Assembly (NCBI GenBank): GCA_041498975.1 | Contig: JBGQJI010000026.1 | Coordinates: forward strand, 1 to 25,037 | DNA length: 25,037 nt | From: Candidatus Methylomirabilis sp. | Lineage (GTDB): Bacteria; Methylomirabilota; Methylomirabilia; Methylomirabilales; Methylomirabilaceae | Reading direction: 5' to 3' | Part shown: positions 2,607 to 25,037 of the stretch, piece by piece | How positions within the stretch are numbered: the first letter of the stretch is position 1 | Layout of the letters: each line of letters starts with the position of its first letter | Notes under the pieces: generated by a model | What the model was told of the DNA's origin: nothing | The model's database searches: none | Seen by the model: only the letters and a program-made list of their open reading frames with translations | Translations under genes and position numbers: made by a program

Positions 2607-2624
2607 GCCTTCATCCCTCTAGGG

Positions 2625-2752: not shown

Positions 2753-2756
2753 ATAT

Positions 2757-6089: not shown

Positions 6090-6090
6090 T

Positions 6091-7626: not shown

Positions 7627-7693
7627 CGACCGATATTCGCTTTCTCCTCAAATGGGTGGGCTCCCACGCTGTTGCTCGGAAGGCGCAGAAAGC

Positions 7694-10345: not shown

Positions 10346-10580
10346 CGGGGACTCCGTATTCGCGGAAGGGCCACACAGCATCGGGCAGATCATACACCAT
10401 GGCCGACTGCAACGCAATCCCAACGCCCCTCAGCATAAGTGGCTCTCAGCCCGTATGAAACTCCGCTGGGAATCCCCTCCGGTGCGCTCAAGGGGGCAAT
10501 GGGGCGGACGATCACAGCAAGCCGGCAGGTCTCTAAGAGCTTGGTTGAAGAGGACGGGTCAGCGTCCGCTGAACCCGCGC

Positions 10581-11804
10581 CTACCGAGCGGATAACTCAG
10601 CGACACGCAGGTCGCTGAACACCGCTTCCATTCCTTTCATGTCGAGATACAGTCCGACGTTGCCCCTCACCTCTGAGGTATCCTCGTAGGAACCGACATA
10701 CTTTCCGTTGACGTAGCACTCGATGGTGCGGCCCCGGATCTCCACTGCGAGGCGGTTCGTCGCGCCGTAACCCTGCTTGACAATGGGGTCGCTGGTCCAG
10801 TCAATCGGATAGATCCAGCTTCCATTCCGTTTCGCCAGCCTGTACGCCCCATTCGCGGACACCGCAAATGTGTAGAAGCGCTCACCCTTGGCCGGGCGGC
10901 CGAACTTCAGCCCAACAGCGCCCGCCTGATCGCCCTTTCGGAGTCGCACCGATACCTCGATCTGGACCCGGTCATGAAGATAGCCCACCTTTAAGAGGTT
11001 GAACTCGCACGTGCCCCGCGGCGCCACGTTTTCAACGCTCAGACCCCCTTCGCTGTACGCCGCTTTGCACGCCCCGCTGGTTCCCTCTTCCCAGTTTCGC
11101 CGCGATCGGAAATCGTCTTCGAAAAGCACCTTTCCTGATCTGGTGGCCTCCCTGGTGATGGCCTTGTCTGCCGGCGCGGCGGGGGGTTGTCCGTTGACGC
11201 GGGTCCAGCGGGAGGTGCCCCACGGACCTGTCGTCTCGATCGAGTGAGAACCAAGAATCCGATAGGTCCCCCCCTCGACCTGATGCGCCATTGTGGTCCA
11301 AGTCCATTGACCGCCCTTCGCTTGGAACCGACCCTTCTCTGACCGCCGACCGTCCGGCGATGACACGCTCAGCCAGTAGTCGCCGGCCGCGCTGATCCCC
11401 CAGAGGAGGTCCGACGTCACGCCCTTGGCCGGGTCGGTGATGCTGGTCCTCCAAGTCCCGACCAGCACAGGATCTACGGTGGCCGGGCCAGACTCGCGCG
11501 CCATTCGGCTCCGGTCGGCGACCGCACGATTGCGATCATTCGCTAGCGGTACGCTCGACGGGTCGATGGCAAATGAGCGGCGCGCCCCCTCCAGATCGCT
11601 CCGCAACCATGGGCCCTTCTTCTCGAGCAGGCCAAGGTCGAAGCGAATGTCGGCACCACTCTGTCCCGGCAGCGGCAGCAATGCCCCAAAGGTCCTGCCA
11701 TGGTCGACCCGTTCGAAGGCAGGCGCCCTCCCCCAAAAGTTCCCGGACCTCGGAGCCACCAGCGCAAGGAGGAAGGTTACACCAACAACCAGGTTCGCAA
11801 TCAT
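10581..11804 (-). CDS. Exported hypothetical protein with a beta-rich middle domain and a C-terminal DUF1080/concanavalin-like domain
   Basis: Hydrophobic N-terminus; LVGTWRTS strand motif; VLFEDDF...NRLAVEIRG..I..YVNGK.V...GNVGL...FSDLRV pattern. Confidence 0.7.
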   Translation of the reverse strand: MIANLVVGVTFLLALVAPRSGNFWGRAPAFERVDHGRTFGALLPLPGQSGADIRFDLGLLEKKGPWLRSDLEGARRSFAIDPSSVPLANDRNRAVADRSRMARESGPATVDPVLVGTWRTSITDPAKGVTSDLLWGISAAGDYWLSVSSPDGRRSEKGRFQAKGGQWTWTTMAHQVEGGTYRILGSHSIETTGPWGTSRWTRVNGQPPAAPADKAITREATRSGKVLFEDDFRSRRNWEEGTSGACKAAYSEGGLSVENVAPRGTCEFNLLKVGYLHDRVQIEVSVRLRKGDQAGAVGLKFGRPAKGERFYTFAVSANGAYRLAKRNGSWIYPIDWTSDPIVKQGYGATNRLAVEIRGRTIECYVNGKYVGSYEDTSEVRGNVGLYLDMKGMEAVFSDLRVAELSAR

Positions 11805-11976
11805 CGGACCCTCCGTGTCAGCTCCCGACGCCTCGAAATCCCAACCCTCGGGTCAGGCCAGTCGTGTCCACCGGTTACGCGATCGCCGCTCATCCCTCCG
11901 CTGTACCCAGCCATAGACTTTTCACGTCCCACCGCCGAAAGGCCGGGCAGACCAGGGGGCGCGGCATATCGGCGGA

Positions 11977-12063
11977 ATCACCACTCTTCCCTGGACAGTC
12001 CCGCGGCCACTGGCGCCAAGCCTTTCAACAATCGCCACCTTTATCCCAGGACAGTCCCGCAGC
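11977..12063. repeat. Imperfect ~32-bp direct repeat with a palindromic GGACnGTCC core
   Basis: ATCACCACTCTTCCCTGGACAGTCCCGCGGC versus ATCGCCACCTTTATCCCAGGACAGTCCCGCAGC; cores start at 11993 and 12049. Confidence 0.6.
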
Positions 12064-12129
12064 TTCCTGCAGATCGTACACCAAGGTGGGCCTGGAGGCA
12101 ATTCTTTAGCGGTTCCGCCCTGATTCGAC

Positions 12130-12159
12130 TTGACAGGCATTGAGGCTTTCTGCTATACA
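12130..12159 (+). promoter_or_regulatory. Sigma70-type promoter upstream of riboswitch 1
   Basis: TTGACA (12130-12135), 18-nt spacer, extended -10 TGcTATACA; the predicted start site falls just before the aptamer. Confidence 0.65.
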
Positions 12160-12169
12160 GGCTGGTAGA

Positions 12170-12235
12170 TAGAGGCGATGGAGTTCGTCGCGTAAACTAT
12201 CCCGACGTGATACTCGGGATTGATAACTCCTACTG
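12170..12235 (+). ncRNA. Fluoride riboswitch (crcB motif) 1
   Basis: GGCGATGGAGTTCGTC-gcgTAAACt-ATCCCGA/TCGGGAT-TGATAACTCCTAC. P1 GGCG/CGTC, P2 of 7 bp, pseudoknot GGAGTT(12180-85)/AACTCC(12225-30). Fits the known consensus. Confidence 0.93.
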
Positions 12236-12266
12236 AAGCGTTCCTTTGGTAGGAGTTTTTGTTTTT
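12225..12266 (+). terminator. Riboswitch 1 expression-platform terminator
   Basis: 14-bp stem AACTCCTACTGAAG/CTTTGGTAGGAGTT (2 G-U pairs), 5-nt loop, then TTTGTTTTT; its 5' arm is the pseudoknot strand. Confidence 0.9.
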
Positions 12267-12282
12267 CGAGGGGTTGGTCAGA

Positions 12283-13191
12283 ATGGATGGCGGTGCCAAG
12301 GCAGCTCGTTCCAAATCCGTGAGCTACTTCGAGCTGCTGGACGCGTTCAAGGAGGAAGGCTGCCCGGTCTGCCGACTCCTGCTCAAGTGGAGTCGCTTAT
12401 ACCTAGACTCGCTCTTTTACGAATACGTCAATGACGTCGGGGTCCGCAGCCGCCTTCGTGATTCTCATGGCTTCTGCAACTGGCACACCTGGATGGCTGC
12501 CAGCATTGACAACAGCCAGTCGGGGATCGCCATCATCTACGAACACCTGCTCAAGGATCAAATTGAGAGGTTTCAGGACGCACTGAGGTTCATCAAGCCT
12601 AGGTATTGGTGGGGGCGACTCAGGGGAAAGTGGTTCCGAGTCAAGGGCAAGCCACCGATTTTCGCTCAACGGAATCAAAGATCACCATGCCCGGCATGCG
12701 AGCGCCTGGATCAGTTCTTTGAACCTGACCTGACCGACACGCTCCTGTCCTCTTTGGCCGACCCGGAGTTCGCCGACGGCTTCGTCGTTTCCTTCGGCCT
12801 CTGCCTGCCTCACCTCTACAACACCATGGTCACAGGCCAAGAGCATCCCAATCTTCCCCTTCTCATGGAGCTTCAACTGAAGAAATTGGGAACGCTTCGC
12901 GGTGAACTCGGTGAATACATCCGGAAATTAGATTACCGGTTCATGGCCGAACCGCGCGGAGAAGAGGCCACTTCCTGGCGACGCGTCATGGAGCTATTCG
13001 TCGGCAAGCCAGAGGTTTTTGGCTCGGACCGCCGGACGTGGGACACGACAGCGGGCCGACAGCCAACGCCATCATCCACAACGCCCCTCCAAGGTCAGGG
13101 TCTGGGACCGGCCAAGAGGAAGGGGGAAAAGGCTGAACAGTTCCGCAAGGACCTTCTGCCCCCGCGCAAAGGGATGTGGGAGGGTTCTTGA
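12283..13191 (+). CDS. DUF6062-like protein 1
   Basis: CPVC...YEYVND..VR..LR.S.GFCNWH, CPAC...GLCLPH, EL.EYIRKLDYRF..EP.GEE..SW.R. ATG 12283 follows GAGGGG; the track's TTG start lies inside the terminator tail. Confidence 0.8.
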   Translation: MDGGAKAARSKSVSYFELLDAFKEEGCPVCRLLLKWSRLYLDSLFYEYVNDVGVRSRLRDSHGFCNWHTWMAASIDNSQSGIAIIYEHLLKDQIERFQDALRFIKPRYWWGRLRGKWFRVKGKPPIFAQRNQRSPCPACERLDQFFEPDLTDTLLSSLADPEFADGFVVSFGLCLPHLYNTMVTGQEHPNLPLLMELQLKKLGTLRGELGEYIRKLDYRFMAEPRGEEATSWRRVMELFVGKPEVFGSDRRTWDTTAGRQPTPSSTTPLQGQGLGPAKRKGEKAEQFRKDLLPPRKGMWEGS

Positions 13192-13227
13192 AAGTGCCTT
13201 CCTTCACACCGACAACAAGGAGCTCCT

Positions 13228-14409
13228 GTGGAGAACGCATGGATTGGAATGGTGATGGGCCTGCTGATCCTTCTGGCAAGCATGGCCTCGGTGGAACTGG
13301 GGATCTCGGTCGCCCTGATCGAGATCGGTTTTGGCATCGTCGCCGGGAACTTTTTGGGTCTGCACTCCACCCCATGGATCGACTTTCTGGCCAGCTTCGC
13401 CAGCATCGTGCTGACCTTCCTGGCCGGCGCCGAGGTCGATCCCGACCTCATGCGGGAGAAGCTGAAAGAAAGCGCCCTTATCGGTGGACTCTCCTTCCTT
13501 CTGCCGTTCTTTGGAACGTGGGCCTTTTGCTACCTCGTTGTGGGCTGGACCAAGGCGGCATCGCAAATCGCTGGCACCGCACTTTCGACCACCTCGCTCG
13601 CCGTGGTCTATGCCGTGCTGGTCGAGACGGGACTCACCAACGCGCCGATTGGCAAACTGATCATGGCATCAACGTTCGTAACAGACTTTGGAACCGCGCT
13701 CGCCTTGAGCCTCCTGTTCATCCGGCCTACCTGGTGGATCGTCCCATTCATCCTAGTCTCTGCAGCGTTGATCGTCATCATGCCCCGAATGAAACCCTGG
13801 TTCTTTTCGCGCTACGGCAAACGAGTCATCGAGCCCGAAATTAAAGGCGCCTTTGCCGCGCTTCTTGTCTTGATGTACTTCGCTCATCTGGCTGAAAGCC
13901 ATGCTGTCCTGCCGGCCTTCATCCTCGGCCTGGCGGTCGCGAAGATTTTTCACAGCCACAGAGAGGAACAACGGCGCTTCCGAATCGTGACCTTTGCCAT
14001 GCTGACGCCGTTCTTTTTTACCAAGTCCGGGATGAACGTGTCATTGGGTCTCGTGTGGGCCAACACCGGGCTACTGCTGATGCTACTTGCAGTGAAGCAA
14101 ATCACGAAGTTCATCGGCGTTTACCCGTTTGCGAAACGTTATGTCGCGGAACACGCGATGTACACCACCCTCCTGATGAGCACGGGCCTAACCTTTGGCA
14201 CCATCGCTTCGCTTTTCGGGCTGAACGCCGGCATCCTCACCAAAGCACAGTTCTCAGTTCTGGTCACGGTCGTCATCCTGAGCGCCATTATTCCCACAAT
14301 GATTGCCCAGCGCTATTTCGATCCCAGACGTCCCCTCAAACGGGCCGAGGAAGCGCCAAGGGCTGCTATGATTAGGCCCCCTCAACTGCTCGAGGAAAAA
14401 GGGGCGTAA
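13228..14409 (+). CDS. Cation:proton antiporter (CPA2 / Na_H_Exchanger family)
   Basis: About 12-13 hydrophobic segments; FLAGAEVD, LSTTSLAVV, FVTD, PFFF..SGM motifs; AAGGAG RBS with GTG start. Confidence 0.88.
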   Translation: MENAWIGMVMGLLILLASMASVELGISVALIEIGFGIVAGNFLGLHSTPWIDFLASFASIVLTFLAGAEVDPDLMREKLKESALIGGLSFLLPFFGTWAFCYLVVGWTKAASQIAGTALSTTSLAVVYAVLVETGLTNAPIGKLIMASTFVTDFGTALALSLLFIRPTWWIVPFILVSAALIVIMPRMKPWFFSRYGKRVIEPEIKGAFAALLVLMYFAHLAESHAVLPAFILGLAVAKIFHSHREEQRRFRIVTFAMLTPFFFTKSGMNVSLGLVWANTGLLLMLLAVKQITKFIGVYPFAKRYVAEHAMYTTLLMSTGLTFGTIASLFGLNAGILTKAQFSVLVTVVILSAIIPTMIAQRYFDPRRPLKRAEEAPRAAMIRPPQLLEEKGA

Positions 14410-14832
14410 ATGTACCAGAGGATCCTCGTCGCCTACGACGGCTCCGAGGGCTCGAAGAAGGCCCTTCGAGCCGGCATTAAGCTGGCCAAGCTGCTGGAGG
14501 TGGACTTGTATTCGATTTCTGTAGCGGAGGGGCTTCCCTACTTTGCCGCGACCGTGGGCGAGGTCGAAGAGGTCAAGGACGACGTCGAGGCGTTTTTCAA
14601 GAAGATCACCAAGGAGGCCTGGGACGAGGCAGCGCTTCAGGGCGTGAACCTCCACACAACGGTCCTCCCCGGCCACGAGGTGGAGACCATCATCACCTTC
14701 GCGAAGGAAGGCCGGTTTGATCTATTGATCGTCGGATTCGTGGGTCATTCCAATGTGTTCGGGCGCATTATGGGAGGCACCACCCAAAACCTGAGCCGAC
14801 TGTCTCCCTGCACGGTGATGATCGTCAAATAG
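14410..14832 (+). CDS. Universal stress protein (UspA family)
   Basis: MYQRILVAYDGSEGS..AL, DLLIVG..G......IMGGTT..L....PCTVMIVK; starts immediately after the antiporter stop. Confidence 0.93.
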   Translation: MYQRILVAYDGSEGSKKALRAGIKLAKLLEVDLYSISVAEGLPYFAATVGEVEEVKDDVEAFFKKITKEAWDEAALQGVNLHTTVLPGHEVETIITFAKEGRFDLLIVGFVGHSNVFGRIMGGTTQNLSRLSPCTVMIVK

Positions 14833-14886
14833 AACCGATCCAGGGAACACCTCATGCTGATGTGGGTGAAGAATGAGGGGAGATAG

Positions 14887-15234
14887 ATGCCAATTGATAG
14901 GCCATGGCTGCTATTTTCCGAGATTGCTATCAATCTTGAGCAAGACGAATCGGGTGTCTACGAGTTAGGGAACAGGACTGGCAGTGTCATATACCTAGGG
15001 AGTTCAAGCAGAGTGCGCCAACGGCTGAAAGAACACCTGAATGCTTGGAGCACGACGTGTCTCAAAAAGCACACAGCGAAGTACCGGGTAGAATACACGT
15101 CAAAGTTCAAGGCTAGAGAATGGGAGTTATATGACCAGCACGTGAGGTCACATAGCAAACCTCCTAGATGTAATGCCGCGCGCGAATTTCCGTCCTCCAG
15201 ACTTTCTGAAGCTGAAATCAAATCAGGACACTAG
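14887..15234 (+). CDS. Stand-alone GIY-YIG nuclease-like protein
   Basis: GVY-x10-YLG, then VRQRLKEH and a downstream ARE.EL helix. Confidence 0.7.
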   Translation: MPIDRPWLLFSEIAINLEQDESGVYELGNRTGSVIYLGSSSRVRQRLKEHLNAWSTTCLKKHTAKYRVEYTSKFKAREWELYDQHVRSHSKPPRCNAAREFPSSRLSEAEIKSGH

Positions 15235-15248
15235 CCGATTAAGACATC

Positions 15249-15800
15249 ATGGAAACCTCGCAGCAAGCCCGGGCCGTGGCGATCACGCTGCAGCCCTGTA
15301 TCTATCGGGCCGAACGTCCCTCTCAAAGTGCTGACGGCGGTTCCGGAGGAGTCGCTCTGACCTGCAAGGCCATGGGAGGGAAGAGCCTCGGCCGAAAAGG
15401 CCAGGACGATGTCCGGATCGCCGAGATCTGTAACCCTTGTACCATCCCTCAGGAGGCCGCGTTCCGGCCTTGCCTTTTCCTGGTCCCGATCAAAGTAGAA
15501 CGGAAACGGGTTCTCAAAGACTACTTTACTTGCCGCTGGTTGTACCGGCTTCGTCCCGACCGACCGGATGAGAAGACCCGATACATGTGCGCCGGCTGCC
15601 CTTTCTGGTTCCCAATGCCACCGGTCTCGCTGGTCCGCGACTTGGAGCAGGCTGCGAAGAAGATGATCGACTACCATGCACAAATCTGGGAGAACCCTCC
15701 GCCCCCGCCACCCAAGCTCATCTGGATTCAGAGGCCGCCGGCACCGAGAACGCTATGGCAACGGACACGCGATTCGCTGATTCGGTGGTGGGGATGGTGA
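15249..15800 (+). CDS. Hypothetical Cys-rich protein (8 Cys)
   Basis: Co-oriented with short gaps to both neighbours; two C..C..CxxC modules and a Pro-rich then Trp-rich C-terminus. Confidence 0.65.
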   Translation: METSQQARAVAITLQPCIYRAERPSQSADGGSGGVALTCKAMGGKSLGRKGQDDVRIAEICNPCTIPQEAAFRPCLFLVPIKVERKRVLKDYFTCRWLYRLRPDRPDEKTRYMCAGCPFWFPMPPVSLVRDLEQAAKKMIDYHAQIWENPPPPPPKLIWIQRPPAPRTLWQRTRDSLIRWWGW

Positions 15801-15831
15801 CCCACCGGGAAAGCGAGAGGGAGTGGGAGGT

Positions 15832-16584
15832 ATGAGCTTTGCCCTGCTTTCCATCGAGCTGGAGGACGCGCTCCAAAGCCAGGGGTGCGCCGTTTGCCGC
15901 CTCGTCCAGGAGGGTGACCAGCGTTACATTCGTCACTTCCTCTGGGAAGGGAAAAACGAGGGCCATATGCTCCTCAGGCTCAAACGCTCGCTCGGCCTCT
16001 GCCACCATCATGCTTGGTTGCTGGCCGATACCGAAGACCTGGAGTTCAAGGATGGGTTGGGAACAGCGACCCTGTACGATTGGCTGCTTGACATCGCGCA
16101 TGAGACCCTCCGGAAGGCGCGGGAGACCCGCACCATCGAGGCGGCGAAACGACTGGCTACATCGTTGCACCCACAACCCCCCTGCCCTGCATGCGCCATC
16201 CGCCGCGAGTTTGCGGAGACGGTCCTGTGGGGCCTGCAGCAATTTCTCGCGCCCGTGGGAGGTCATGAGACGATCAGGAACCTGTATGCCAAGTCAGGCG
16301 GCCTTTGCTTGCCTCATCTCCTGGCTCTCCTCCGGATGACCTCCTTCCCGGAGGTCGTGCAGCTATTGCTGGAGGTGCAGGAGCGGACGCTGGCATCCCT
16401 CCTCGCGGAACTGGAACTGTTCCAGCGCAAGCACCGGGTCGGCGAGCAAGCACCGATCGGCAAGGAACAGGACGCGTGGAACCGCGCCCTCGATCTGCTC
16501 GCTGGACGCCTAAACGGCGCCCGACCACCGGGTGTTGCGAACTCACAGGTGAATCGCACATCGAGGATGGTGGCTGAAGGCTGA
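15832..16584 (+). CDS. DUF6062-like protein 2
   Basis: CAVC...GLCHHH, CPAC...GLCLPH, EL..F.RKH...E.DAW.RA; GGAGG RBS just before ATG 15832. Confidence 0.8.
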   Translation: MSFALLSIELEDALQSQGCAVCRLVQEGDQRYIRHFLWEGKNEGHMLLRLKRSLGLCHHHAWLLADTEDLEFKDGLGTATLYDWLLDIAHETLRKARETRTIEAAKRLATSLHPQPPCPACAIRREFAETVLWGLQQFLAPVGGHETIRNLYAKSGGLCLPHLLALLRMTSFPEVVQLLLEVQERTLASLLAELELFQRKHRVGEQAPIGKEQDAWNRALDLLAGRLNGARPPGVANSQVNRTSRMVAEG

Positions 16585-16616
16585 AGTGCCGGTGCCCGCA
16601 TCTCGCCGGTATCCTG

Positions 16617-17354
16617 ATGTCGCTGCACTTACTCTATAGCCGCTGGAGAGCGGCACTCACCCAGGCGGGGTGTCCGGCCTGCCGGATCATGGAGGCTGTG
16701 GCCCGGAGGTACATGATCACGCTCGTCCGTGAAGGGAAAAGCCACGACGAGGTGTACATACGGATTCAGAGGGCGTGGGGCTTTTGTGAGGGGCACGGCC
16801 GAATGCTGAAAGGGATCAGCCCGGCGAAGCTTGGTGATGGGATGAGTCCGGCGCGACTGTGCTCCTGGCTATTAGGGGCCCTGAGTATGCGGCTGTCCAA
16901 GGCGTTGCAGTCCACCAGGACCTCGTTGTCGCCGAGGATTCAAGGGCGCCGATGGCTCAGGAGAAAGAGACCTCCTGGCGAAGGAATCGCCAAACAGCTC
17001 GAAGTCGAAGGGCGCTGCCCGGCTTGTGAAGATCTCACCAGGTATGAGCGAAGCCTGTTATGGGGCCTTCAGCGCCTTCTTTCAGAGACCAAAGGGGAAG
17101 AGACGATCCGACACTTATATCATGCCTCTCATGGTCTCTGCTTCCCGCACCTCCGCCTCGCTCTCGAAGAGGCGGAGGAACCGTCGTCGGTCGATCTGCT
17201 CCTCCAGGTTCAAGAGCAGGCACTCTCCGACCTTTCCTGGAACCTGAAGGAGTATCTTCGGAAGCATGATTACCGCTACAGGCTTGAGCCGATGACGCAG
17301 GCAGAAGCCACGAGTTGCCTTCGGGCAATCGCCTTGTTCGCGGGGGAGCGATAG
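16617..17354 (+). CDS. DUF6062-like protein 3
   Basis: CPAC...GFCEGH, CPAC...GLCFPH, LKEYLRKHDYRY..EP. Confidence 0.8.
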   Translation: MSLHLLYSRWRAALTQAGCPACRIMEAVARRYMITLVREGKSHDEVYIRIQRAWGFCEGHGRMLKGISPAKLGDGMSPARLCSWLLGALSMRLSKALQSTRTSLSPRIQGRRWLRRKRPPGEGIAKQLEVEGRCPACEDLTRYERSLLWGLQRLLSETKGEETIRHLYHASHGLCFPHLRLALEEAEEPSSVDLLLQVQEQALSDLSWNLKEYLRKHDYRYRLEPMTQAEATSCLRAIALFAGER

Positions 17355-17483
17355 GTGAGCCTCCGCGTGATCGCCGACCCGCGCATCATTCCGGCGGCGC
17401 TGGAGATTGTCACACGGAAGCCTTTGGACCACCCAATCTGTGAGTGTAGTGGTTGTTGTGCGGCGAGGGTTGTTTGCGGATGA
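17355..17483 (+). CDS. Possible 42-aa Cys-rich small protein (below the ORF-track cutoff)
   Basis: GTG directly after the upstream TAG, with a GGGGAG RBS; MSLRVIADPRIIPAALEIVTRKPLDHPICECSGCCAARVVCG; its stop overlaps the next start as ATGA. Confidence 0.35.
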   Translation: MSLRVIADPRIIPAALEIVTRKPLDHPICECSGCCAARVVCG

Positions 17484-17956
17484 ACGCGCAAGATGGTCAG
17501 CCGGTGCTGCTCAATCCCTCGCAGAAGAATTCACTTCGCATCAGCTTGCTGCTGGTGGAGAGGGGGATGCTCGAAATGGAGCGCCTCCTGTCCGCTGGCG
17601 AATACCATGGGATCCTGTTCCGGATTACGGATGATCTTGGTGACGACACGAAGACAGCCATTGGGCAGCTTATCCACGAGGTTCGGGGGGTCATCCGGGA
17701 GCTGAGGGACCGGTTTCAACTTGACCTGGAGGCTGAAAGAACGAGTCGCGCCATCTTCGGGAAGGCTCCTTTGCTCTGGGAGATCGTGACAGATAGCGAC
17801 ACCAGCCGCCTGCGAGGATACGGACAGGTCCAGCCAGGTTTGAAAGAGATCCTGGACCCCTCAATCGAGCGACTGAGTCAATCCTTGCTGAGAATGCATG
17901 GCTTGGTTTCTAACAACGATAGAGCGTTCACGCGGGATCGGGGCGGTGAACAGTAG
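17480..17956 (+). CDS. Hypothetical all-helical protein with an RLRGYG motif
   Basis: LN.SQKNSLRISL...RLRGYG; amphipathic helices; ATG at 17480. Confidence 0.7.
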   Translation: MNAQDGQPVLLNPSQKNSLRISLLLVERGMLEMERLLSAGEYHGILFRITDDLGDDTKTAIGQLIHEVRGVIRELRDRFQLDLEAERTSRAIFGKAPLLWEIVTDSDTSRLRGYGQVQPGLKEILDPSIERLSQSLLRMHGLVSNNDRAFTRDRGGEQ

Positions 17957-17974
17957 AATTCTCTCGGTGAGCAG

Positions 17975-18037
17975 ATTAGGCGATGGGGTTCGCCATTAAC
18001 CATCCCGATGGCCACGTCGGGATTAATGACCCCTATC
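17975..18037 (+). ncRNA. Fluoride riboswitch (crcB motif) 2
   Basis: GGCGATGGGGTTCGCC-ATTAACC-ATCCCGA/TCGGGAT-TAATGACCCCTAT. P1 GGCG/CGCC, pseudoknot GGGGTT(17985-90)/GACCCC(18028-33). Confidence 0.94.
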
Positions 18038-18070
18038 AAAGGTTCCAGCCCTTGATAGGGGTTTTCTTTT
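18028..18070 (+). terminator. Riboswitch 2 expression-platform terminator
   Basis: Perfect 11-bp stem ACCCCTATCAA/TTGATAGGGGT followed by TTTCTTTT; overlaps the pseudoknot strand. Confidence 0.9.
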
Positions 18071-18084
18071 GAGAGGTTTTGGCC

Positions 18085-18474
18085 GTGAGCAGGAGGCGTC
18101 CAACTGCCGACGAGCGCAACGCCATTGGGGTGTACCTCAGCGGTCGCGGGGCGCATGATCTCGCCATCAGCGAACTGAAGAAAGCAAGGCGGCTAGCTCC
18201 AGGGTCGCCAACCGTCCACTACAACTTGGCGGCCGCCTACTTCGGGAAGAGGGATTTCGATCAAGCCTTCTCGGCTCTCAAGGTGGCCCTGGACCGGGAT
18301 CCCCAACATCTGAATGCCCACCTCCTGCTCGGGCTCGTGCTTGAGGCCAAGGGGTTGTACGATGAGAGCCGCCGGGAGCTTCAATGGGTCGTCGAGCAAG
18401 ACCCCGTGAGCAGAAGCGGCCAAGAAGCTAAGGAAGCGCTGGTCAATCTTGAATCGAGAATGGCCAGACGGTAA
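18085..18474 (+). CDS. Tetratricopeptide repeat protein
   Basis: Three TPR-like units (NAIGV..., VHYNLAAAYF....FDQA, AHLLLGLVL...G.YDES); GAGAGG RBS 8 nt before GTG 18085. Confidence 0.85.
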   Translation: MSRRRPTADERNAIGVYLSGRGAHDLAISELKKARRLAPGSPTVHYNLAAAYFGKRDFDQAFSALKVALDRDPQHLNAHLLLGLVLEAKGLYDESRRELQWVVEQDPVSRSGQEAKEALVNLESRMARR

Positions 18475-18670
18475 GGGGAGATCCCCAACGAACACGAGCT
18501 GTCCCGTGAGCAGATGCTGCCGAAGAGGTGCTTGTTATGTGCACCTGCCGCCGCGTTGCGCTCACCCTCCGCTCGGCCTCGACAACTGGAGAAAGGAATG
18601 TGATAGTCGATCATCAAACCGATCCGGCTGCACGTAGATCGACGGAACCTGACATGATAATGAGGCCAGG

Positions 18671-19960
18671 ATGGCACTAATTTCCAAGATTAGTGCGCGT
18701 GAGGTGCTCGATTCCCGCGGGTACCCCACCATCGAAGTCGAGGTTGTGCTCGAGGACGGTGCGCTTGGCAGAGCTTCGATTCCCGCAGGAGCCTCCACCG
18801 GCAAAATGGAAGCCATGGAGCTTCGCGACGGTGAGAAAGGACGATATCTAGGCAAAGGTGTCAGACGAGCGGTCACGATCGTGACCGAGGTTCTGGCCCT
18901 GAAACTCCTGGGGCTGGAGGCGCACGATCAACCGCTCATCGACAGAACGATGATCGACCTGGATGGGACTCCAAACAAATCGAGATTGGGGGCCAATTCG
19001 ATCCTGGGGATTTCCCTTGCGGTCTCAAAGGCCGCTGCCACGTCTGACGGCGTTCCCCTCTTCAAATACCTCGGAGGTCCGGACGCAAAGGTCATGCCGG
19101 TCCCGATGATGAACGTGATCAATGGGGGACGACACGCTGATAATACCCTGGACTTTCAAGAGTTCATGATTGTCCCACTTGGGGCGCCTCGGTTTTCGGA
19201 CGCCTTGCGGGCAGCGGTTGAGACCTTCCACTCCTTAAAGGAGGTTCTGAAGAGTGCGGGATACGGGACGACAGTCGGCGATGAAGGTGGATTCGCACCG
19301 CGCCTCCGAACGCACGATGAGGCCATCGAATTGATCCTCGCTGCGATCACGAAGGCCGGATTCAAGGCGCCAGGCGAGGTAGCCATTGCCCTCGATCCAG
19401 CCGCCAGCGAATTTTTCAACGACGGTGTGTACAGATTCGAGAAGTCCGACCGATCGAGAAGAGACGCCGAGGGCATGGTAAGGCTGTATGATGACCTCGT
19501 TCGCCAGTATCCGATCGTCTCCCTTGAAGACGGGCTGGCAGAGACCGATTGGCGGGGGTGGGAGATCTTAACGAGGGAGCTTGGGGACAGGCTTCAACTG
19601 GTGGGGGATGACATTTTTGTCACCAACCCCGCCCTCATCGCTGAAGGCATCCGGAAAAAGGTCGCCACTGCGGTCCTCATCAAATTGAACCAGGTTGGGA
19701 CCGTGACGGAAACCCTGCAAGCCGTGCGAGTTGCCCAAGGCGCCGGATATGGGGTCGTGATCTCCCACCGCTCGGGCGAGACCGAGGATACCGCCATCGC
19801 GGACTTCGCGGTGGCCTGCCAAAGCGGACAGATCAAGGCAGGGTCTGCATGTCGTACAGACCGCGTCGCCAAATACAATCAACTGCTCCGCATCGAGGAG
19901 CAGTTGGGACCGGAAGCGGTGTTCCTTGGGCCCAGGATATTCTCCAGGTATGTTGCCTGA
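18671..19960 (+). CDS. eno: Enolase (phosphopyruvate hydratase)
   Basis: [62 protein letters not shown] all present. Confidence 0.97.
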
Positions 19961-19974
19961 GAGGATGATGGTGC

Positions 19975-21675
19975 ATGATCTTCTACTGTCCCTCGTGTTG
20001 GCGTGAGGTGCCCGAAACTGTCCGGGTGTGTCCACATTGCATGGTGGATGTGGAGCGCCTCACCCAAGAACAAGATTACGTCCAGAAGCTGATCGCTGCC
20101 CTTGACCATCCCGAGCCCCAGACACCCATCCGGGTGGCCTGGATTCTCGGCTTCCGGAAGGAAACGCACGCGGTCGCCGATTTAGCCCGGCTCGTCCGTG
20201 AATCAGATGATCCATATATCGTCGAGGCAGCCGTGGAGGCGCTCGGGAGGATCGGGGATCCGGCGGGCCTGGCGGCCGTCCGATTTGCCTCGCAGCACGG
20301 GGGGGTGAGGGTCCGCGAGAGGGCCAAGTATGCCATCGATCTCATTGAGGGGATACCATCCGTCCCTCACGAGGAGCCGACCTCAAAGCGGGAGCAATCA
20401 ACCAACCGAACTAGCGATCCCCTCCCACCCGTACGACTTGATCCGACGGAGTCGGCCCGATCCGAAGGGTGGCTGAACCGGAACGTTGTGGGGATGGGGG
20501 TGACCAGCCTTCTGTCCGATGCATGCCACGAGATGGCCACCGCTGTCCTTCCAAGCTTCCTGACGAGCATCGGTGCGCCGGCGGCGGCTCTTGGCGTGAT
20601 TGAGGGCGTGGCGGACGCCACCAGCAGCTTCGTCAAGTTGGGGGCCGGCTGGTACTCTGACCGAATCGGCCATCGCAAGGGGATCTGCATCCTAGGCTAC
20701 TTCCTGACCGGCGTCTCCAAGGCGCTGTTCGCGTTCGCTATCACCTGGCCCTTGGTGCTCGTCGGCCGAGTCATCGGCTGGTTCGGCCGCGGCATTCGCG
20801 GGCCCCTGCGGGATGCCATGCTAGCGGAGTCTGTCCCGCCGGAAGCGAGGGGAAAAGCCTTCGGATTCCACAGGGCCGGCGACACGTTGGGCGCCATCAT
20901 CGGCCCGCTCCTTGCGGTCGGAGTCATCGAAATGCTCCAGGCCCGTGGTGTGCAGGACTCGTCGGCCCCGTTTCGGACGGTCTTCCTCCTCACGCTGATT
21001 CCGGGGTTGGCCTCGGTTCTCACGATGGCAAGCCTGGTCCGGGAACGGCGCCGCCTGCCCAATCACGACCTTCGGTTCTGGGCCTCGCTCAGGGAACTCC
21101 CAAAGAGGTTCCGCCGCTTCCTTCTGGGCGTCGGCCTCTTCGGCCTCGGCGATTATGCCCACACTTTCTTGATCCTCGCCGCCACCACCCTCCTTACCCC
21201 TGCATACGGGCTCGTCGAAGCCGCGCAGATCGCCGCGCTCCTCTATGTGTGGCGGAACGTCCTCTATGCCGCCGCCTCTTATCCGGTGGGCGCCCTGAGC
21301 GACCGTGTGGGACGACGAGGTCTGCTCGCTCTCGGCTATCTCCTTGGGGCCGTGACCGCCGGCGGCTTCGGGCTTGCGTTTCTCATCCCTCTTCCCGCTC
21401 TCTCGAAACTGGCCGTGCTGGTTTGCCTCTTTGCGACGGCAGGCATCTATATTGCCATGGAGGACACGCTTGAAGGAACGCTGACAGCCGACCTGACTCC
21501 ACGAGAAACCTGGGGTCTCTCGCAAGGCGTCCTCGGCACGATCAATGGGGTCGGCGACTTCGTTGCCAGCCTTGTTGTTGGGATCTTGTGGTCTGCCGTC
21601 TCTCCCATGGCGGCCTTTGGCTACGCTGCCCTTCTCTCTCTCCTCGGCACCGCGCTCATCTATCGACTACGATGA
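19975..21675 (+). CDS. MFS transporter with N-terminal Zn-ribbon and HEAT-repeat domains
   Basis: CPSC-x10-CPHC, then HEAT units (VEAAVEALGRIGD), then an MFS body from about residue 165 with motif A twice (GWYSDRIGHRK, GALSDRVGRR) and RGKAFGFHRAGD. Confidence 0.88.
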   Translation: MIFYCPSCWREVPETVRVCPHCMVDVERLTQEQDYVQKLIAALDHPEPQTPIRVAWILGFRKETHAVADLARLVRESDDPYIVEAAVEALGRIGDPAGLAAVRFASQHGGVRVRERAKYAIDLIEGIPSVPHEEPTSKREQSTNRTSDPLPPVRLDPTESARSEGWLNRNVVGMGVTSLLSDACHEMATAVLPSFLTSIGAPAAALGVIEGVADATSSFVKLGAGWYSDRIGHRKGICILGYFLTGVSKALFAFAITWPLVLVGRVIGWFGRGIRGPLRDAMLAESVPPEARGKAFGFHRAGDTLGAIIGPLLAVGVIEMLQARGVQDSSAPFRTVFLLTLIPGLASVLTMASLVRERRRLPNHDLRFWASLRELPKRFRRFLLGVGLFGLGDYAHTFLILAATTLLTPAYGLVEAAQIAALLYVWRNVLYAAASYPVGALSDRVGRRGLLALGYLLGAVTAGGFGLAFLIPLPALSKLAVLVCLFATAGIYIAMEDTLEGTLTADLTPRETWGLSQGVLGTINGVGDFVASLVVGILWSAVSPMAAFGYAALLSLLGTALIYRLR

Positions 21676-21724
21676 GGTCCTCCGAAGGGGTCAACAGGCA
21701 GCGCGCTCGATACGGACCACTGCG

Positions 21725-22747
21725 ATGAACCCGAGAAAACTTGTCAAGAAGCTTGACGACCTTCGCCAGAATCTGGATGCTCAGCTTCAACTCATCATGC
21801 TAGGCGAGAAGGCAGTGGAACCACTGGTCGAGTTCCTGCTGTCAGCGCCAGCGCTTCACGCGGAACCACGATGCCTGGCGGCCGAGGCACTGGGTGCCAT
21901 CGGCGGGGAGAGGGCAATTGACGGCCTGATCAAAGCGTTGACTATCAATGATGTCCATGCCTGCGACCCAAGTATCCGCCTCTCGGAGGAAGTGGTCCGC
22001 AGTTGCGCGGCCGCGCAGCTCGGGCGATTGGGCGCCCGGAGAGCCATTGAGCCTTTGCTGGACGCGCTGGAGCGGCTTCATCTCGTTGGAGCGGCCGAGG
22101 CACTCGCCAGGCTCGGGGAGACACGAGGCATCCCCTTGATGATCGATCGACTCGAGGATCCATTTATCAGGGTGAGGATCGGCCAAGCGCTTCTGGCCTT
22201 CGGCCAAGAGGGGCAGATTCCGTTGATCGAAACCCTGTCAGTTAGGCGCTACGTCCAGGAAGAGGAATCGAGAGGCAGCCGAGAGCGACGGGCGGAGGCC
22301 ACGCGGTTGCTGGGTCTCCTGAAATCACAAAAGACTATCGAGCCTCTCATGGAGCTGCTTGTCGATGAGGCTCGGGAGGTTCGGCTGCACGCGGCGCTGT
22401 CACTTTGCGACCTTATGAGTACCGATGACCACCGGCTCGAGCAGGCGCTGCCAGTCCTGGTCAGGGACTCGGAGTGCGGCGGGCTTGCCACAAGGGACCG
22501 GGTGTTCGACGCGCTGATCAAAATGGCTTCCAAGGCGCTCCCGCATCTCCTCGAAGCTCTGGAAGATTCAGACCTTTCCGGCGACACGAAAGACTTGATG
22601 ATCGAGGTCCTGGCTCACATCCCGGATCCTCGTGTTCCCGGCGCATTGCTCTCTCTGCTCTCAGGCCGACAGAGATCACTTCATTGGAAGGCCCGATGGG
22701 CTCTGCAGCGGCTGGGACGAACCTTCGAACCTTATCGCCCTCATTGA
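21725..22747 (+). CDS. HEAT-repeat (PBS lyase-like) protein
   Basis: Repeated AAEALGAIG, AAAQLGRLG..RAIEPLL and VRLHAALSL units. Start ATG 21725 chosen to avoid a 130-nt overlap with the MFS gene. Confidence 0.85.
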   Translation: MNPRKLVKKLDDLRQNLDAQLQLIMLGEKAVEPLVEFLLSAPALHAEPRCLAAEALGAIGGERAIDGLIKALTINDVHACDPSIRLSEEVVRSCAAAQLGRLGARRAIEPLLDALERLHLVGAAEALARLGETRGIPLMIDRLEDPFIRVRIGQALLAFGQEGQIPLIETLSVRRYVQEEESRGSRERRAEATRLLGLLKSQKTIEPLMELLVDEAREVRLHAALSLCDLMSTDDHRLEQALPVLVRDSECGGLATRDRVFDALIKMASKALPHLLEALEDSDLSGDTKDLMIEVLAHIPDPRVPGALLSLLSGRQRSLHWKARWALQRLGRTFEPYRPH

Positions 22748-22781
22748 TGAACACACTGAACCGCGCCTGAGATAAGGGGAC

Positions 22782-23360
22782 GTGAATCCTACGCCGCTGA
22801 TCCAACTCGCTTCAGATCTCGACACTTGGTTCTTTATGGGTGTGAATGTGGGGCTCTCTAACCCGTTCCTGGACAAGGTCATGCCGTGGGTAACGGAAAA
22901 ACACCACTTCGTCGCGCCCCTGGTCATTCTATTGCTCGCGTTATTGTTGTGGGGAGGACAACACGGCAGGCAGACGCTTCTCCTTGCCCTGATCCTCGTG
23001 ATCCTGACAGATCAGACTGGAAACCTCCTGAAACTCTTGCTGGCGCGAGTGCGCCCCTGTCACGTGGTACCGACAGCCCATCTCCTCGTAGGCTGCACGG
23101 CATCGGGCTCGTTCCCCTCCAACCATGTGTTGAATCTGTTTGCCCAATCCACGCTCCTGGCACTTCAGTGGGGATGGCCTGCGAGCCCCGCTTTCCTCGT
23201 CGCGGCGATCGTGGCTTATTCGCGCGTCTATGTAGGAGTCCATTATCCGGGCGACGTCATCGGAAGCGCCGGGATCGGGATAGTGTGGGGTTGGCTAGTA
23301 TCTCGTGGCGCCCTGGAGGTCAATCGTCGCTGGGTGAAATCCACGGTGAGAGACCCATGA
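22782..23360 (+). CDS. PAP2-family membrane phosphatase
   Basis: C1 K-x6-RP, C2 PSNH, C3 SRVYVGVHYPGD; hydrophobic segments. Confidence 0.92.
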   Translation: MNPTPLIQLASDLDTWFFMGVNVGLSNPFLDKVMPWVTEKHHFVAPLVILLLALLLWGGQHGRQTLLLALILVILTDQTGNLLKLLLARVRPCHVVPTAHLLVGCTASGSFPSNHVLNLFAQSTLLALQWGWPASPAFLVAAIVAYSRVYVGVHYPGDVIGSAGIGIVWGWLVSRGALEVNRRWVKSTVRDP

Positions 23361-24169
23361 TCAATGACACCACCTACTGGACACAGCTTGGCGAGAGTAT
23401 CAAGCTGAACAGGAATGCCGGGTACGATCCCTCCACAATCCTGATCTTTCTCATGGAGACGAACCGGGCCTGTCCCGTCTGTTTTATCCTGCGGGACCGA
23501 GAGTTCTACGTGCTCTGTCAGTTTCAGTACGACGTCATTCATCAGTCGGAAATAAGAGACGCATTTCGATACGAGGGCACCCTCTGTAACCACCATGCCT
23601 GGTTCATGAAAGCGCTAGCGACCCCTGTGACGAGTGGTGGACTCTTCCATGCTTTGATCACCGAGACCATGGGCCGACTCGACGAGAGTTCAGCCATCGT
23701 CCGAAATATCGTATACGATCGCCAACAGCCAGAAGTCATCGCAAAGCTCCTAGAGGGTGAACGCCGCTGCGTCGCGTGCGAAGACCATGCAGCAATGGAA
23801 ACTCATTTGATACAGGAAATGAGCAGGCTCTTAGGAGATCCTTCGTTTCGAACCACGTATCGGACCTCCTGGGGGATCTGCCGGCCACACGTAGCGAGTG
23901 TTCTTGCGCGGGTTGAGGATCCGCACCTCAAGGCTTTCGTACTCCAGGCCTACCTAGCACAGCTCAGGCGCCAAGCACATGAACTGGAGGAGCTTGAACG
24001 GCAGACTGCCGCGAAGGTGCGCGATCTGGGGGAGCTTGCCCAGGCTCACGCGCGGGCTGTCGAGCGCTGGGCGGGCATGCGCGGTTTGGCATTGCCGCGA
24101 GAAGAGCCACCCCCTCCCCTTCGAAGCCGGCTCTTGAAGTCCCCTGAGCGTGGTGAGGGCAACCATTGA
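23357..24169 (+). CDS. DUF6062-like protein 4 (divergent)
   Basis: CPVC...LCNHHAW and CVAC...GICRPH; ATGA overlap with the PAP2 stop fixes the start at 23357. Confidence 0.72.
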   Translation: MINDTTYWTQLGESIKLNRNAGYDPSTILIFLMETNRACPVCFILRDREFYVLCQFQYDVIHQSEIRDAFRYEGTLCNHHAWFMKALATPVTSGGLFHALITETMGRLDESSAIVRNIVYDRQQPEVIAKLLEGERRCVACEDHAAMETHLIQEMSRLLGDPSFRTTYRTSWGICRPHVASVLARVEDPHLKAFVLQAYLAQLRRQAHELEELERQTAAKVRDLGELAQAHARAVERWAGMRGLALPREEPPPPLRSRLLKSPERGEGNH

Positions 24170-25037
24170 TGGGGAGGATGATGGAATTCACCAATCATCA
24201 TAGTGTAGGTAGCGGGGCGGACTTGCAAGACCGTTTGGGACGAACCCGTGATGAGCTACTTAATATTCTCGACACTATCGGATCATTGGTCGATAAGGCG
24301 GGATTGCCGCCCTACCCAGCTTTAGCGGCTGCGGATCGACTCCGCCACAACAGGTTCGACATCGTCGTCCTGGGCCAGTACAAACGGGGGAAGACGACCT
24401 TCATCAATGCCCTCCTTGGTGAGGACCTCCTTCCCACCGCCATCGTCCCATTGACCAATATCGCCACGCGGGTGCGCCACGCGACCCTCCCGTCTGCGCG
24501 CGTGACCTTTCTGGACGGGCGGTTTCAGGAGATCTCACTTCAAGAGCTAGCGCTCTACACCACGGAGAAAGGCAACCCCGGTAACGCCAAGAGGGTGCTC
24601 CTGGTGGAGGTCGAGTTCCCCGCGACCGCCCTTCGGGACGGGACGATGGTCACGGACACGCCCGGAATCGCCTCGATCTTCGAGCAGAACACCCGGGCGG
24701 CGATGGAGTATATCCCCCAGGCAGACGCCGCGATCTTCCTGGTGAATGCGGACCCGCCGATCAGCGAGGCGGAACGGGCCTTCCTCAAAGAGGTTCGCCC
24801 GTATGTGGCAAAGCTCTTCTTTGTGCAAAACAAGATCGACCAGGTGAGTCCGGAGGATCAAGAAGAGTCCCTTGCTTTTACGCGTACCGTAATCGAAGAG
24901 ACAATGGGCGAAGGCGAGATCGTCATCTACCCCGTCTCGGCTCGCTTGGCCCTGGAAGCCAAGCTGGCACAAGACGCGACAAAGCTTGGCCTAAGCCGAT
25001 TCGACCAGTTCGAGCGGGATCTCCATGGTTTTCTCCA
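24169..25037 (+). CDS. Bacterial dynamin-like GTPase, 3'-truncated at the window edge
   Basis: Hand-translated open frame not in the ORF track: G1 VVLGQYKRGKTTFINALLG, G2 LPTAIVPLT, TEKGNPGN, G3 DTPG, G4 NKID, PVSAR. Start at 24169 (TGATG overlap), 24178 or 24181. Confidence 0.92.
   Translation, partial: MGRMMEFTNHHSVGSGADLQDRLGRTRDELLNILDTIGSLVDKAGLPPYPALAAADRLRHNRFDIVVLGQYKRGKTTFINALLGEDLLPTAIVPLTNIATRVRHATLPSARVTFLDGRFQEISLQELALYTTEKGNPGNAKRVLLVEVEFPATALRDGTMVTDTPGIASIFEQNTRAAMEYIPQADAAIFLVNADPPISEAERAFLKEVRPYVAKLFFVQNKIDQVSPEDQEESLAFTRTVIEETMGEGEIVIYPVSARLALEAKLAQDATKLGLSRFDQFERDLHGFL

Follow-up and report, generated by a model that had tools for sequence, protein, structure and literature searches.

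Introduction

Classical fluoride riboswitch operons carry genes for exporters (crcB/Fluc or eriC-F/CLC-F), Na+/H+ antiporters, enolases or pyrophosphatases behind an RNA of the class RF01734, whose aptamer overlaps a transcription terminator in such a way that the genes are turned on by fluoride. Here, we describe a row of 15 genes behind two RNAs of this class in Candidatus Methylomirabilis sp. (assembly GCA_041498975.1). The stretch of DNA that was analyzed, hereafter the window, is the entire contig JBGQJI010000026.1 (C26) of 25,037 bases, and the sequence stops at position 25037 within the last gene of the row. The assembly contains 2.68 Mb in 241 contigs, is 84.9% complete and has a G+C content of 61.8%. 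The locus is probably a genuine and unusually large fluoride regulon, serially gated, that contains a conserved core of uncharacterized proteins.

Among the multi-gene systems already described, the fluoride resistance operon FRM of Enterobacter cloacae reportedly contains crcB. The consulted part of its description (PMC5533749) mentions a fluoride riboswitch, an enolase and a universal stress protein (Usp). As stated in the consulted sections of a 2024 review (PMC11139923), the cytoplasm is acidified when HF enters, Na+/H+ antiporters rank second in frequency among the cargo of the switch, and enolase is sensitive to fluoride and often switch-controlled. The consulted part of Weinberg 2010 (PMC2864571) includes mutS, K+/Cl- transport and formate hydrogen lyase in the cargo of the crcB motif. 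The cluster of the window resembles the classical operons in the RNA class, in the ON logic of the overlapping terminator and in its antiporter and enolase genes, but it differs from them in several respects: no exporter gene is found in the cluster or in the assembly, the two switches stand in series in a single row, and the four DUF6062 proteins, the dynamin-like GTPase, the HEAT and tetratricopeptide repeat (TPR) proteins and the proteins g05 and g08 are not among the cargo named in the consulted parts of PMC11139923 and PMC2864571. PMC11139923 does not contain the terms dynamin, MFS (major facilitator superfamily), universal stress or unknown function.

DUF6062 (Pfam PF19538) is a family of unknown function on which our literature search found no paper. 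Bacterial dynamins with solved structures, for example IniA and DynA, are tied to antibiotic or membrane stress. The dynamin-like protein of the window shares the Dynamin_N GTPase domain with the stress-linked IniA (6j72), the bacterial dynamin-like protein (BDLP) of Nostoc (2j68) and the pair of dynamin-like proteins (DLP) of Campylobacter (5owv), which remodel or repair membranes under stress, but unlike them it belongs to a group in which 8 of 12 phylum relatives are linked to the fluoride switch, usually with a DUF6062 partner, as is the window copy itself, truncated at 290 amino acids (aa). To the family PF19538, whose profile is passed by four paralogues of the window, this analysis adds the linkage to the switch, a double Cys3His signature and four apparently old paralogue types. 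A preliminary description of this DNA had presented the combination of genes as undescribed, and the literature bears this out, since we found no paper linking a fluoride riboswitch with a dynamin or dynamin-like protein or with Methylomirabilis; the gene tables of Baker 2012, where hypothetical proteins may be included, lie outside the coverage of this search.

Two fluoride riboswitches in series

The window was scanned with cmscan against Rfam 15 at the gathering threshold, yielding exactly two matches, both to RF01734 (Fluoride; cut-off 34 bits) and both covering the whole model (1-64/64). The aptamer of riboswitch 1 is located at 12165-12239 (+) (38.3 bits, E 1.9e-7) and that of riboswitch 2 at 17970-18042 (+) (43.3 bits, E 4.3e-9), and there is no third RF01734 match in the 2.68-Mb assembly. 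Each aptamer shares its 3' part with a terminator hairpin, in which this part forms the 5' arm; in switch 1 the arm is the pseudoknot strand. The terminator of riboswitch 1 (12225-12267, +) is made of a 14-bp stem (12225-12257) followed by the T-run TTTGTTTTT (-18.6 kcal/mol, z -4.43), and the terminator of riboswitch 2 (18029-18071, +) of a stem at about 18029-18062 followed by the T-run TTTTCTTTT (-22.7 kcal/mol, z -4.73). When the terminator hairpins were folded alone, none of 200 shuffles folded as well.

An alignment of 48 aptamers of the phylum, including both aptamers of the window, was used to count the pairs of P1, the pseudoknot and P3. In this alignment 98.0% of the cells are paired and double changes occur in 7 of the 14 pairs, a result that none of 500 shuffles matches, and pairing falls to 39-62% when the partner positions are slid by 1-3 columns. 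At one pseudoknot pair, 27 sequences have A-U and 19 have G-C, and the same compensated change distinguishes the two switches of the window, whose pseudoknots are GGAG/CUCC (switch 1) and GGGG/CCCC (switch 2), while the P1, P3 and pseudoknot pairs are retained in both. The two crcB-class aptamers with overlapping terminators that had been called beforehand are thus upheld by the Rfam scores, the stems and the covariation. Judged by their sequence, both RNAs are genuine fluoride riboswitches with terminator platforms, and they are predicted to bind fluoride.

Just upstream of aptamer 1, a promoter-like site can be read from the sequence at 12130-12159 (+), composed of TTGACA, an 18-nt spacer and TGcTATACA (extended -10 type), and ending 5 nt before the aptamer. 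This putative promoter is absent from the list produced by our consensus scan because the last base of its -10 element is A. Switch 2 starts 13 nt past the stop codon of g08, and 36 nt separate its end from the TPR gene (g09). Since only these 13 nt lie behind the g08 stop, the space is too small for a promoter of its own, and switch 2 most likely re-gates transcripts begun at 12.16 kb.

In this phylum, switches are often repeated: two of them lie within 1-1.5 kb in the genomes G007 and G036, and four within 4.3 kb in G044. In the latter (locus L029, contig C6, 13048-17358), four switches head separate units for DUF6062, the antiporter, MFS and, divergently, Usp. A different layout was observed on contigs G142:C191, G099:C20, G113:C101, G085:C129 and G139:C181, where a fluoride riboswitch follows, at a distance of about 60 nt and on the same strand, the end of an MFS gene from the g11 subfamily; the layout of these five genomes resembles that of g08 and switch 2, which suggests that the phylum habitually uses internal switches for re-gating. 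In the family f6 (G101, G028 and G133; loci L040, L041 and L028), the aptamers score 23.5-25.6 bits and have a P3 without the usual AACC lead-in. They keep all the invariant nucleotides and the pseudoknot and sit directly upstream of DUF6062 or dynamin genes, and they are likely a divergent lineage-specific form missed by standard thresholds. In a metagenome-assembled genome of Syntrophaceae (L077, 3173-6708), a group II intron (D1-D4, 186 bits) is placed between the fluoride riboswitch and the DUF6062 gene located 2.8 kb downstream.

Organization of the gene row

The 15 genes are all encoded on the + strand and run, closely packed, from behind switch 1 to the contig end (about 13 kb). The previous picture of a promoter followed by about 15 co-oriented and tightly spaced genes was correct in every item. 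In Block 1, the eight genes from DUF6062a (g01) to g08, the gaps are in gene order 36, 0, 54, 14, 22, 32 and 98 nt. In Block 2, the gaps after the TPR gene are 196, 14, 49 and 34 nt and are followed by two 4-nt overlaps, one between the PAP2 and DUF6062d genes (g13/g14), with DUF6062d read from the ATG at 23357, and the other between the DUF6062d and dynamin genes (g14/g15). The 196-nt gap before the enolase gene (g10) is the sole break of more than 98 nt between genes. The arrangement is reproduced at 95-100% identity by contigs of four other sediment metagenome runs, whose bridging pieces (10197-12066, 10986-13137, 16729-19786 and 22671-24938) cover, among other parts, the border to the housekeeping flank and the segment from g08 through switch 2 and the TPR gene to the enolase gene.

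Linkage of DUF6062 and dynamin genes to the fluoride riboswitch

Linkage was analyzed in a phylum sample of 150 other genomes drawn evenly across Methylomirabilota/NC10. DUF6062 gave 42 matches in 32 genomes, and the switch was found at 51 sites in 40 genomes, a count that includes G056, an unpublished switch genome without DUF6062. Twenty of the 42 DUF6062 matches, belonging to 17 genomes, are located 87-2483 nt downstream of a same-strand switch, and G133 becomes the 18th linked genome, i.e., 18/32, through a sub-threshold aptamer in the same place (24.7 bits, E 0.004). A broader scan of GTDB with one genome per species and the pattern G[FL]CNWH[AT]W yielded 49 DUF6062 loci. According to a covariance model made from our own aptamer alignment, 30 of them have a same-strand aptamer upstream, nine of these 30 being places from which the model was built. 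The Rfam model at its cut-off confirmed 12 of 13 re-tested switch-bearing loci, picked for titles that do not name Methylomirabilota, NC10 or Rokubacteria; their labels are Nitrospinota, Thermodesulfobacteriota/Syntrophaceae, Acidiferrales (Acidobacteriota), Binatia and unclassified.

The dynamin-like genes behave similarly. There are 12 strong Dynamin_N matches (at least 75 bits) in the phylum sample, and eight of them lie 0.15-3.5 kb downstream of a switch (G096, G099, G126, G113, G070, G127, G110 and G101, the last one with a sub-threshold aptamer), six of these eight operons also containing DUF6062. Homologous clusters do carry the riboswitch, in 30 of 49 loci for DUF6062 and in 8 of 12 cases for the dynamins, as one would expect from the preliminary description. 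DUF6062 and the dynamin are recurrently linked to the fluoride switch, and for DUF6062 this linkage extends over at least five phylum-level groups.

The operons show which partners recur. The order switch-DUF6062-antiporter-Usp is present in G023, G126, G151, G117, G075 and G028, with a gene for Pup between the switch and DUF6062 in G117. The other orders found are switch-dynamin-DUF6062-antiporter-Usp-g05-TPR in G101, switch-DUF6062-antiporter-dynamin in G113, switch-DUF6062-antiporter-Usp-CrcB-DUF190-dynamin in G127 and switch-DUF6062-MFS::DUF190-dynamin in G096. Among the 49 loci, all the antiporter (12/12), Usp (11/11) and dynamin (9/9) matches fall in switch-bearing ones. G133, which belongs to another family of the same order, has 9 of the 15 window genes, i.e., DUF6062a, Usp, g05, DUF6062b, DUF6062c, g08, TPR, enolase and DUF6062d. 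Within the genus, a 3.4-kb contig of G015 reads g05-metallophosphoesterase-g08-TPR-zinc-ribbon/HEAT-dynamin, and G001 contains switch-metallophosphoesterase-TPR-enolase. The 8-Cys protein g05, the TPR protein, g08 and the zinc-ribbon/HEAT piece are therefore recurrent in related clusters.

As regards Pup, its gene in G117 (L032, contig C11, 9388-9693, -) is the first one behind the fluoride riboswitch. The Pup gene of the window genome itself (G000, contig C209, L113, 666-863, -) lies beside MoCF_biosynth, ParA/NUBPL and MerR-type genes, with no switch.

The DUF6062 proteins

The four DUF6062 paralogues of the window score above the cut-off of PF19538 (27 bits). DUF6062a (g01; 12283-13191, +; 69.2 bits) has 302 aa from the ATG at 12283, a start that is also called in public collections (P0001). 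DUF6062b (g06; 15823-16584, +; 43.4 bits) and DUF6062c (g07; 16617-17354, +; 53.1 bits) are adjacent, and DUF6062d (g14; 23357-24169, +; 38.7 bits) has a start that overlaps the stop of g13 (ATGA). The family bears a signature of two CxxC...CxxH modules (double Cys3His), derived in this analysis and not contained in the Pfam definition, and both modules are kept in the four paralogues, with 37-41 residues from CxxC to CxxH. In 57 aligned DUF6062 sequences, conservation is complete at C65, H68, C136, C139, C174 and H177 and reaches at least 90% at C27 and C30. The identity to the best counterparts in G133 is 45% for DUF6062a, 38.7% for DUF6062b, 38.1% for DUF6062c and 34% for DUF6062d. Because each paralogue has a distinct best counterpart in this genome of another family, the four appear to be old types and not recent copies.

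In the AlphaFold2 (AF2) model of DUF6062a (pLDDT 79.9, pTM 0.72), the fold contains helices only and falls into two similar halves, and the tail is disordered. A search of the PDB sequences with the DUF6062 profile gave a best E of 0.25 and no assignment. Fused DUF6062 forms of 530-2000 aa were looked for and none was found, which is weak evidence, and the prediction of a complex between the antiporter and DUF6062a scored 0.00 in two runs made without controls, a result that speaks neither for nor against an interaction.

The dynamin-like GTPase

The last gene of the row (g15; 24166-25037, +), whose start overlaps the g14 stop, encodes the N-terminal 290 aa of a dynamin-like GTPase (Dynamin_N 87.8 bits, cut-off 27). 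The remainder of the gene was sought on the other contigs of the assembly and was not found. Full-length relatives have 564-722 aa, and the homologue in G015 is 81% identical. The full-length homologue of G101 (581 aa) matches 5owv, 2j68 and 6j72 (IniA), with E values from 1.7e-10 to 1.5e-19.

Other genes of the row

The gene g02 (13228-14409, +) encodes a CPA2-like cation/proton antiporter consisting of the membrane domain only (Na_H_Exchanger, PF00999, 130.6 bits, cut-off 26.2). It scores 86.3 against the CPA2 subfamily model TIGR00932 (cut-off 238.3), no KTN/RCK domain was found in it, and its nearest solved chains are the Na+/H+ antiporters 4bwz and 5bz2 (E about 1e-16). The gene g03 (14410-14832, +) encodes a Usp (PF00582, 91.8 bits) and g10 (18671-19960, +) a second enolase (TIGR01060, 630.2 bits, cut-off 300) that is 65.6% identical to the other copy, located on contig C6. 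Together with the MFS protein encoded by g11, these are the four known associates of fluoride riboswitches named in the preliminary description, and the profile matches place all of them in the row. The presence of g02, g03 and g10 is explained by the points on acidification, antiporters and enolase made in the consulted sections of PMC11139923.

Two genes encode recurrent proteins outside any Pfam family. The g05 product (15249-15800, +) is a Cys-rich protein of 183 aa (8 Cys) with 18 homologues of 60-74% identity, forming a small, narrow and well-conserved family in which 6 Cys and 1 His are conserved and a C-terminal RWWGW is invariant (18 proteins). Its homologues are present in the clusters of G133, G101, G015 and L063. 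The ESM Atlas returned nothing informative for g05 (best score 0.76), and its AF2 model (pLDDT 55.6) was too poor for a structure search. The g08 product (17453-17956, +) is a helical protein of 167 aa from a widespread family without a Pfam model (614 cluster representatives at E<=1e-3), found also in the clusters of G133, G015 and L063. Among 42 members of this family there is no consistent Pfam match, six families appearing with one member each at E >1e-3, and g08 has no match in the PDB. The gene g09 (18079-18474, +) encodes a small protein of the TPR families, and its homologues (70%) stand beside enolase or dynamin genes in the same-genus genomes G001 and G015.

The g11 product (19975-21675, +) joins a zinc-ribbon, HEAT repeats and an MFS transporter in a single open frame of 566 aa, as indicated by profile matches, and its N-terminal 137 aa are encoded by a separate gene beside the dynamin gene in G015. 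The MFS subfamily has 50 matches at E<=1e-25 in 44 other genomes, with switch-MFS arrangements in G044, G126, G075 and G096. In G096 (L031, contig C104, 11994-13982, -), the homologous MFS carries a fused C-terminal DUF190 and lies between DUF6062 and dynamin genes behind a fluoride riboswitch; elsewhere in related loci, DUF190 accompanies crcB. On a 3.1-kb contig of the window genome (G000, C214, L112; region 2023-3119), a second metallophosphoesterase gene precedes the start of a g11-like MFS gene. This metallophosphoesterase is 75% identical to its switch-linked counterpart in G001, and no riboswitch was detected there.

The remaining genes encode a GIY-YIG/DUF7508-like protein of 115 aa (g04; 14887-15234, +; profile match), a HEAT-repeat protein of 340 aa from the ATG at 21725 (g12; 21725-22747, +; profile match) and a PAP2 lipid phosphatase resembling undecaprenyl-diphosphatases (g13; 22782-23360, +; PF01569, 72.1 bits), which scores below the cut-offs of NF047884 and NF008813. 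What ties these three proteins to fluoride is their position in the row. The proposal that all the remaining cargo forms a fluoride module thus holds for DUF6062 (18/32 genomes, 30/49 loci), the dynamin (8/12), g05, TPR, g08 and the zinc-ribbon/HEAT piece, but it does not extend to PAP2, GIY-YIG and the 340-aa HEAT protein.

Fluoride exporters

Neither the contig nor the 84.9%-complete assembly has a match to the profiles of CRCB or Voltage_CLC, in agreement with the remark that no Fluc or CLC-F was in view, and a tblastn search of the assembly with four CrcB proteins and one CLC from relatives returned nothing at E<1. DUF190, sought on the other contigs of the assembly, was not found either. 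The absence of an exporter may be an assembly gap, given the completeness of 84.9% and the presence of crcB in 10 of 19 same-genus genomes, where it stands behind a switch in G007 and G010. The genome G023, which is 96% complete, contains the core operon switch-DUF6062-antiporter-Usp and neither CrcB nor CLC, and in G103 the antiporter is located with a CLC. Since the module shares an operon with CrcB in G127, it is an addition to the known response and not necessarily a substitute for an exporter.

A model for the proposed regulon and its alternatives

The cluster is probably a fluoride-inducible stress regulon gated by two transcription-terminating switches in series. Without fluoride, each leader would fold its terminator and transcription would halt; with fluoride, the aptamer pseudoknot would sequester a strand of the terminator 5' arm and RNA polymerase would continue. 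Block 1, behind switch 1, would provide DUF6062a, the CPA2-type antiporter, Usp, the GIY-YIG-like protein, g05, DUF6062b, DUF6062c and g08, and Block 2, behind the second checkpoint, the TPR protein, the second enolase, the zinc-ribbon-HEAT-MFS protein, the HEAT protein, PAP2, DUF6062d and the dynamin-like GTPase. The antiporter and Usp would oppose the acidification of the cytoplasm, and the extra enolase would offset the inhibition of enolase. DUF6062 and the dynamin-like GTPase would constitute the conserved core, with the zinc-ribbon/HEAT piece, the TPR protein, g05 and, in relatives, the metallophosphoesterase. This core would act at the cytoplasmic membrane, where the GTPase would remodel or repair the membrane under fluoride/HF stress and the double Cys3His paralogues would bind metal and serve the GTPase and the neighboring transporters as adaptors or regulators. 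We infer such a membrane stress module from the conserved adjacency of the genes, the overlapping stop and start codons and the paralogue types with different partners, and fluoride induction in this organism, the co-transcription of the entire row, the binding of metal and the roles of the uncharacterized proteins are likewise inferences.

Several observations weigh against this regulon and are considered here together with the other explanations of the locus. The 196-nt gap upstream of the enolase gene contains a promoter-like site at 18579-18607, detected by the consensus scan, so that the genes from the enolase onward could also be expressed without the switches, and all 24 sequencing runs that contain DNA of the locus are DNA runs, none of them RNA. 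None of the related loci examined, also by tblastn, contains a counterpart of PAP2, GIY-YIG or the 340-aa HEAT protein. It could then be argued that the row is a mosaic created by gene accretion, in which only the genes directly behind each switch are fluoride-regulated and the distal ones (enolase, MFS, HEAT, PAP2, DUF6062d and dynamin) depend on a fluoride-blind promoter of their own. The same-genus G015, without switch 2, enolase, MFS, HEAT, PAP2 and DUF6062d, would make of the window version an expanded mosaic, and the cluster has a G+C content below that of the flank and lies past the end of the genus synteny at about 10420. Nevertheless, the 15 genes are co-oriented with gaps of 0-98 nt save the one of 196 nt and with two 4-nt overlaps, and the enolase, MFS, DUF6062 and dynamin genes each stand behind switches in other genomes, as the enolase does in G001. 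Moreover, the consensus scan found two promoter-like sites in the region, fewer than the shuffle mean of 3.5. We consider this explanation unlikely. The earlier statement that the cluster is under two riboswitches stands as to the switches, the gene order and the spacing, but on account of this gap and its promoter-like site the row is a less certain candidate for a single transcription unit.

The specificity for fluoride can be questioned too, as 14 of the 32 DUF6062 genomes of the phylum sample have no linked switch (several of their matches being at contig ends), 19 of the 49 GTDB loci have no switch, indicating that the family is not everywhere tied to fluoride, and four of the 12 strong dynamin matches (G103, G142, G015 and G128) are without a switch link, two of them at contig ends. 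DUF6062 and the dynamin might accordingly be a general module for envelope, metal or redox stress to which the fluoride switch is merely one of several inputs attached in some lineages, a possibility that we take seriously but hold to be doubtful. The Cys3His sites suggest zinc or redox chemistry rather than fluoride chemistry, and the homologue of G101 matches solved dynamins from the stress-linked group. Against such a module, the linkage of 20 of 42 matches is far above chance, which we estimate at about 4e-4 per random gene (for a 4-Mb genome with 1-2 switches and a downstream range of 2.5 kb); it spans at least five phylum-level groups; and the antiporter, Usp and dynamin partners appear only in the switch-bearing DUF6062 loci. 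The biochemical part of the regulon has its own adverse points: Foldseek of the DUF6062a model against the PDB gave a best E of 0.94 and no informative neighbor, VIA-align against 48,161 chains found generic helical repeats (best Z 5.0), and seven full-length dynamins of the phylum have no DUF6062-like CxxC/CxxH tail. The binding of DUF6062 to metal, to the GTPase or to a transporter, and with it the biochemical role of the family, is a prediction.

A further explanation is that the cluster supplies the missing exporter, the MFS or the CPA2 protein exporting fluoride with the support of the other proteins. It would suit the lack of both exporter families in the assembly and in G023, the switch-MFS arrangements of four genomes and the fusion of the homologous MFS of G096 to DUF190, otherwise a neighbor of crcB. 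However, only 2 of the 50 MFS matches lie downstream of a switch, with five more ending about 60 nt upstream of one, and the closest MFS homologues (64, 57 and 53% identity) have no visible switch link, findings that also count against including the MFS in the regulon. In addition, the assembly is incomplete and crcB is frequent in the genus, the module and the antiporter occur together with CrcB in G127 and with CLC in G103, respectively, and the consulted sections of PMC11139923 name no MFS or CPA2 fluoride exporter. This exporter function seems quite improbable to us. As an extension of the serially gated regulon, we tentatively suggest, without holding it to be probable, that DUF6062 and the dynamin-like GTPase might represent a widespread, export-independent form of fluoride tolerance, i.e., a fluoride-induced and metal-dependent remodeling or repair of the membrane that would limit HF/F- damage or control the co-encoded transporters, and that with CPA2 and MFS it might be the main defense of those Methylomirabilales without Fluc and CLC-F, such as the window genome and G023.

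The flank of the cluster

Upstream of the cluster, the region 6000-10420 shows 79-85% identity to four same-genus genomes, and synteny stops at about 10420. The genes of this flank encode RNase E/G and a radical-SAM fusion protein, and farther upstream there are genes for L21, Obg, ProB, ProA, a NadD-like protein and RsfS. The G+C content is mostly 0.55-0.60 across the cluster vs 0.60-0.65 in the flank. This lower G+C and the break of synteny fit a possible recent foreign insertion of the cluster, but related pieces are present in the same-genus G015 and G001.

Just past the end of the genus synteny, an open reading frame of 407 aa (10581-11804, -) is divergent from the cluster and has only faint matches to concanavalin-A-like lectins (E 0.0013). 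Within the radical-SAM/DUF2344 fusion gene (7694-10423, -) there is a repeat of about 85-130 nt at 8399-8545, which corresponds to an alignment gap in the same-genus G008, G007 and G010 and has about 40 matching places in G012. Metagenome depth at the repeat is 124-411x vs 5-35x in the adjacent sequence, with many loose ends at 8539-8541. The repeat resembles a miniature element present in multiple copies, which would have inserted, in frame, into the linker of the fused gene.

Implications

According to the consulted sections of PMC11139923, fluoride tolerance in microbes has so far been explained almost wholly by two exporter families and a few compensating enzymes. The same sensor RNA is now seen to head genes of a large uncharacterized family, DUF6062, and of a dynamin-like membrane GTPase, in at least five phylum-level groups. 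This raises the questions of whether membrane remodeling is part of the fluoride response and of how organisms that seemingly have neither exporter cope with fluoride, and the answers would be of relevance for the engineering of microbes that release fluoride while degrading organofluorine compounds. For DUF6062, until now a family without a function, the linkage would provide a defined inducing signal.

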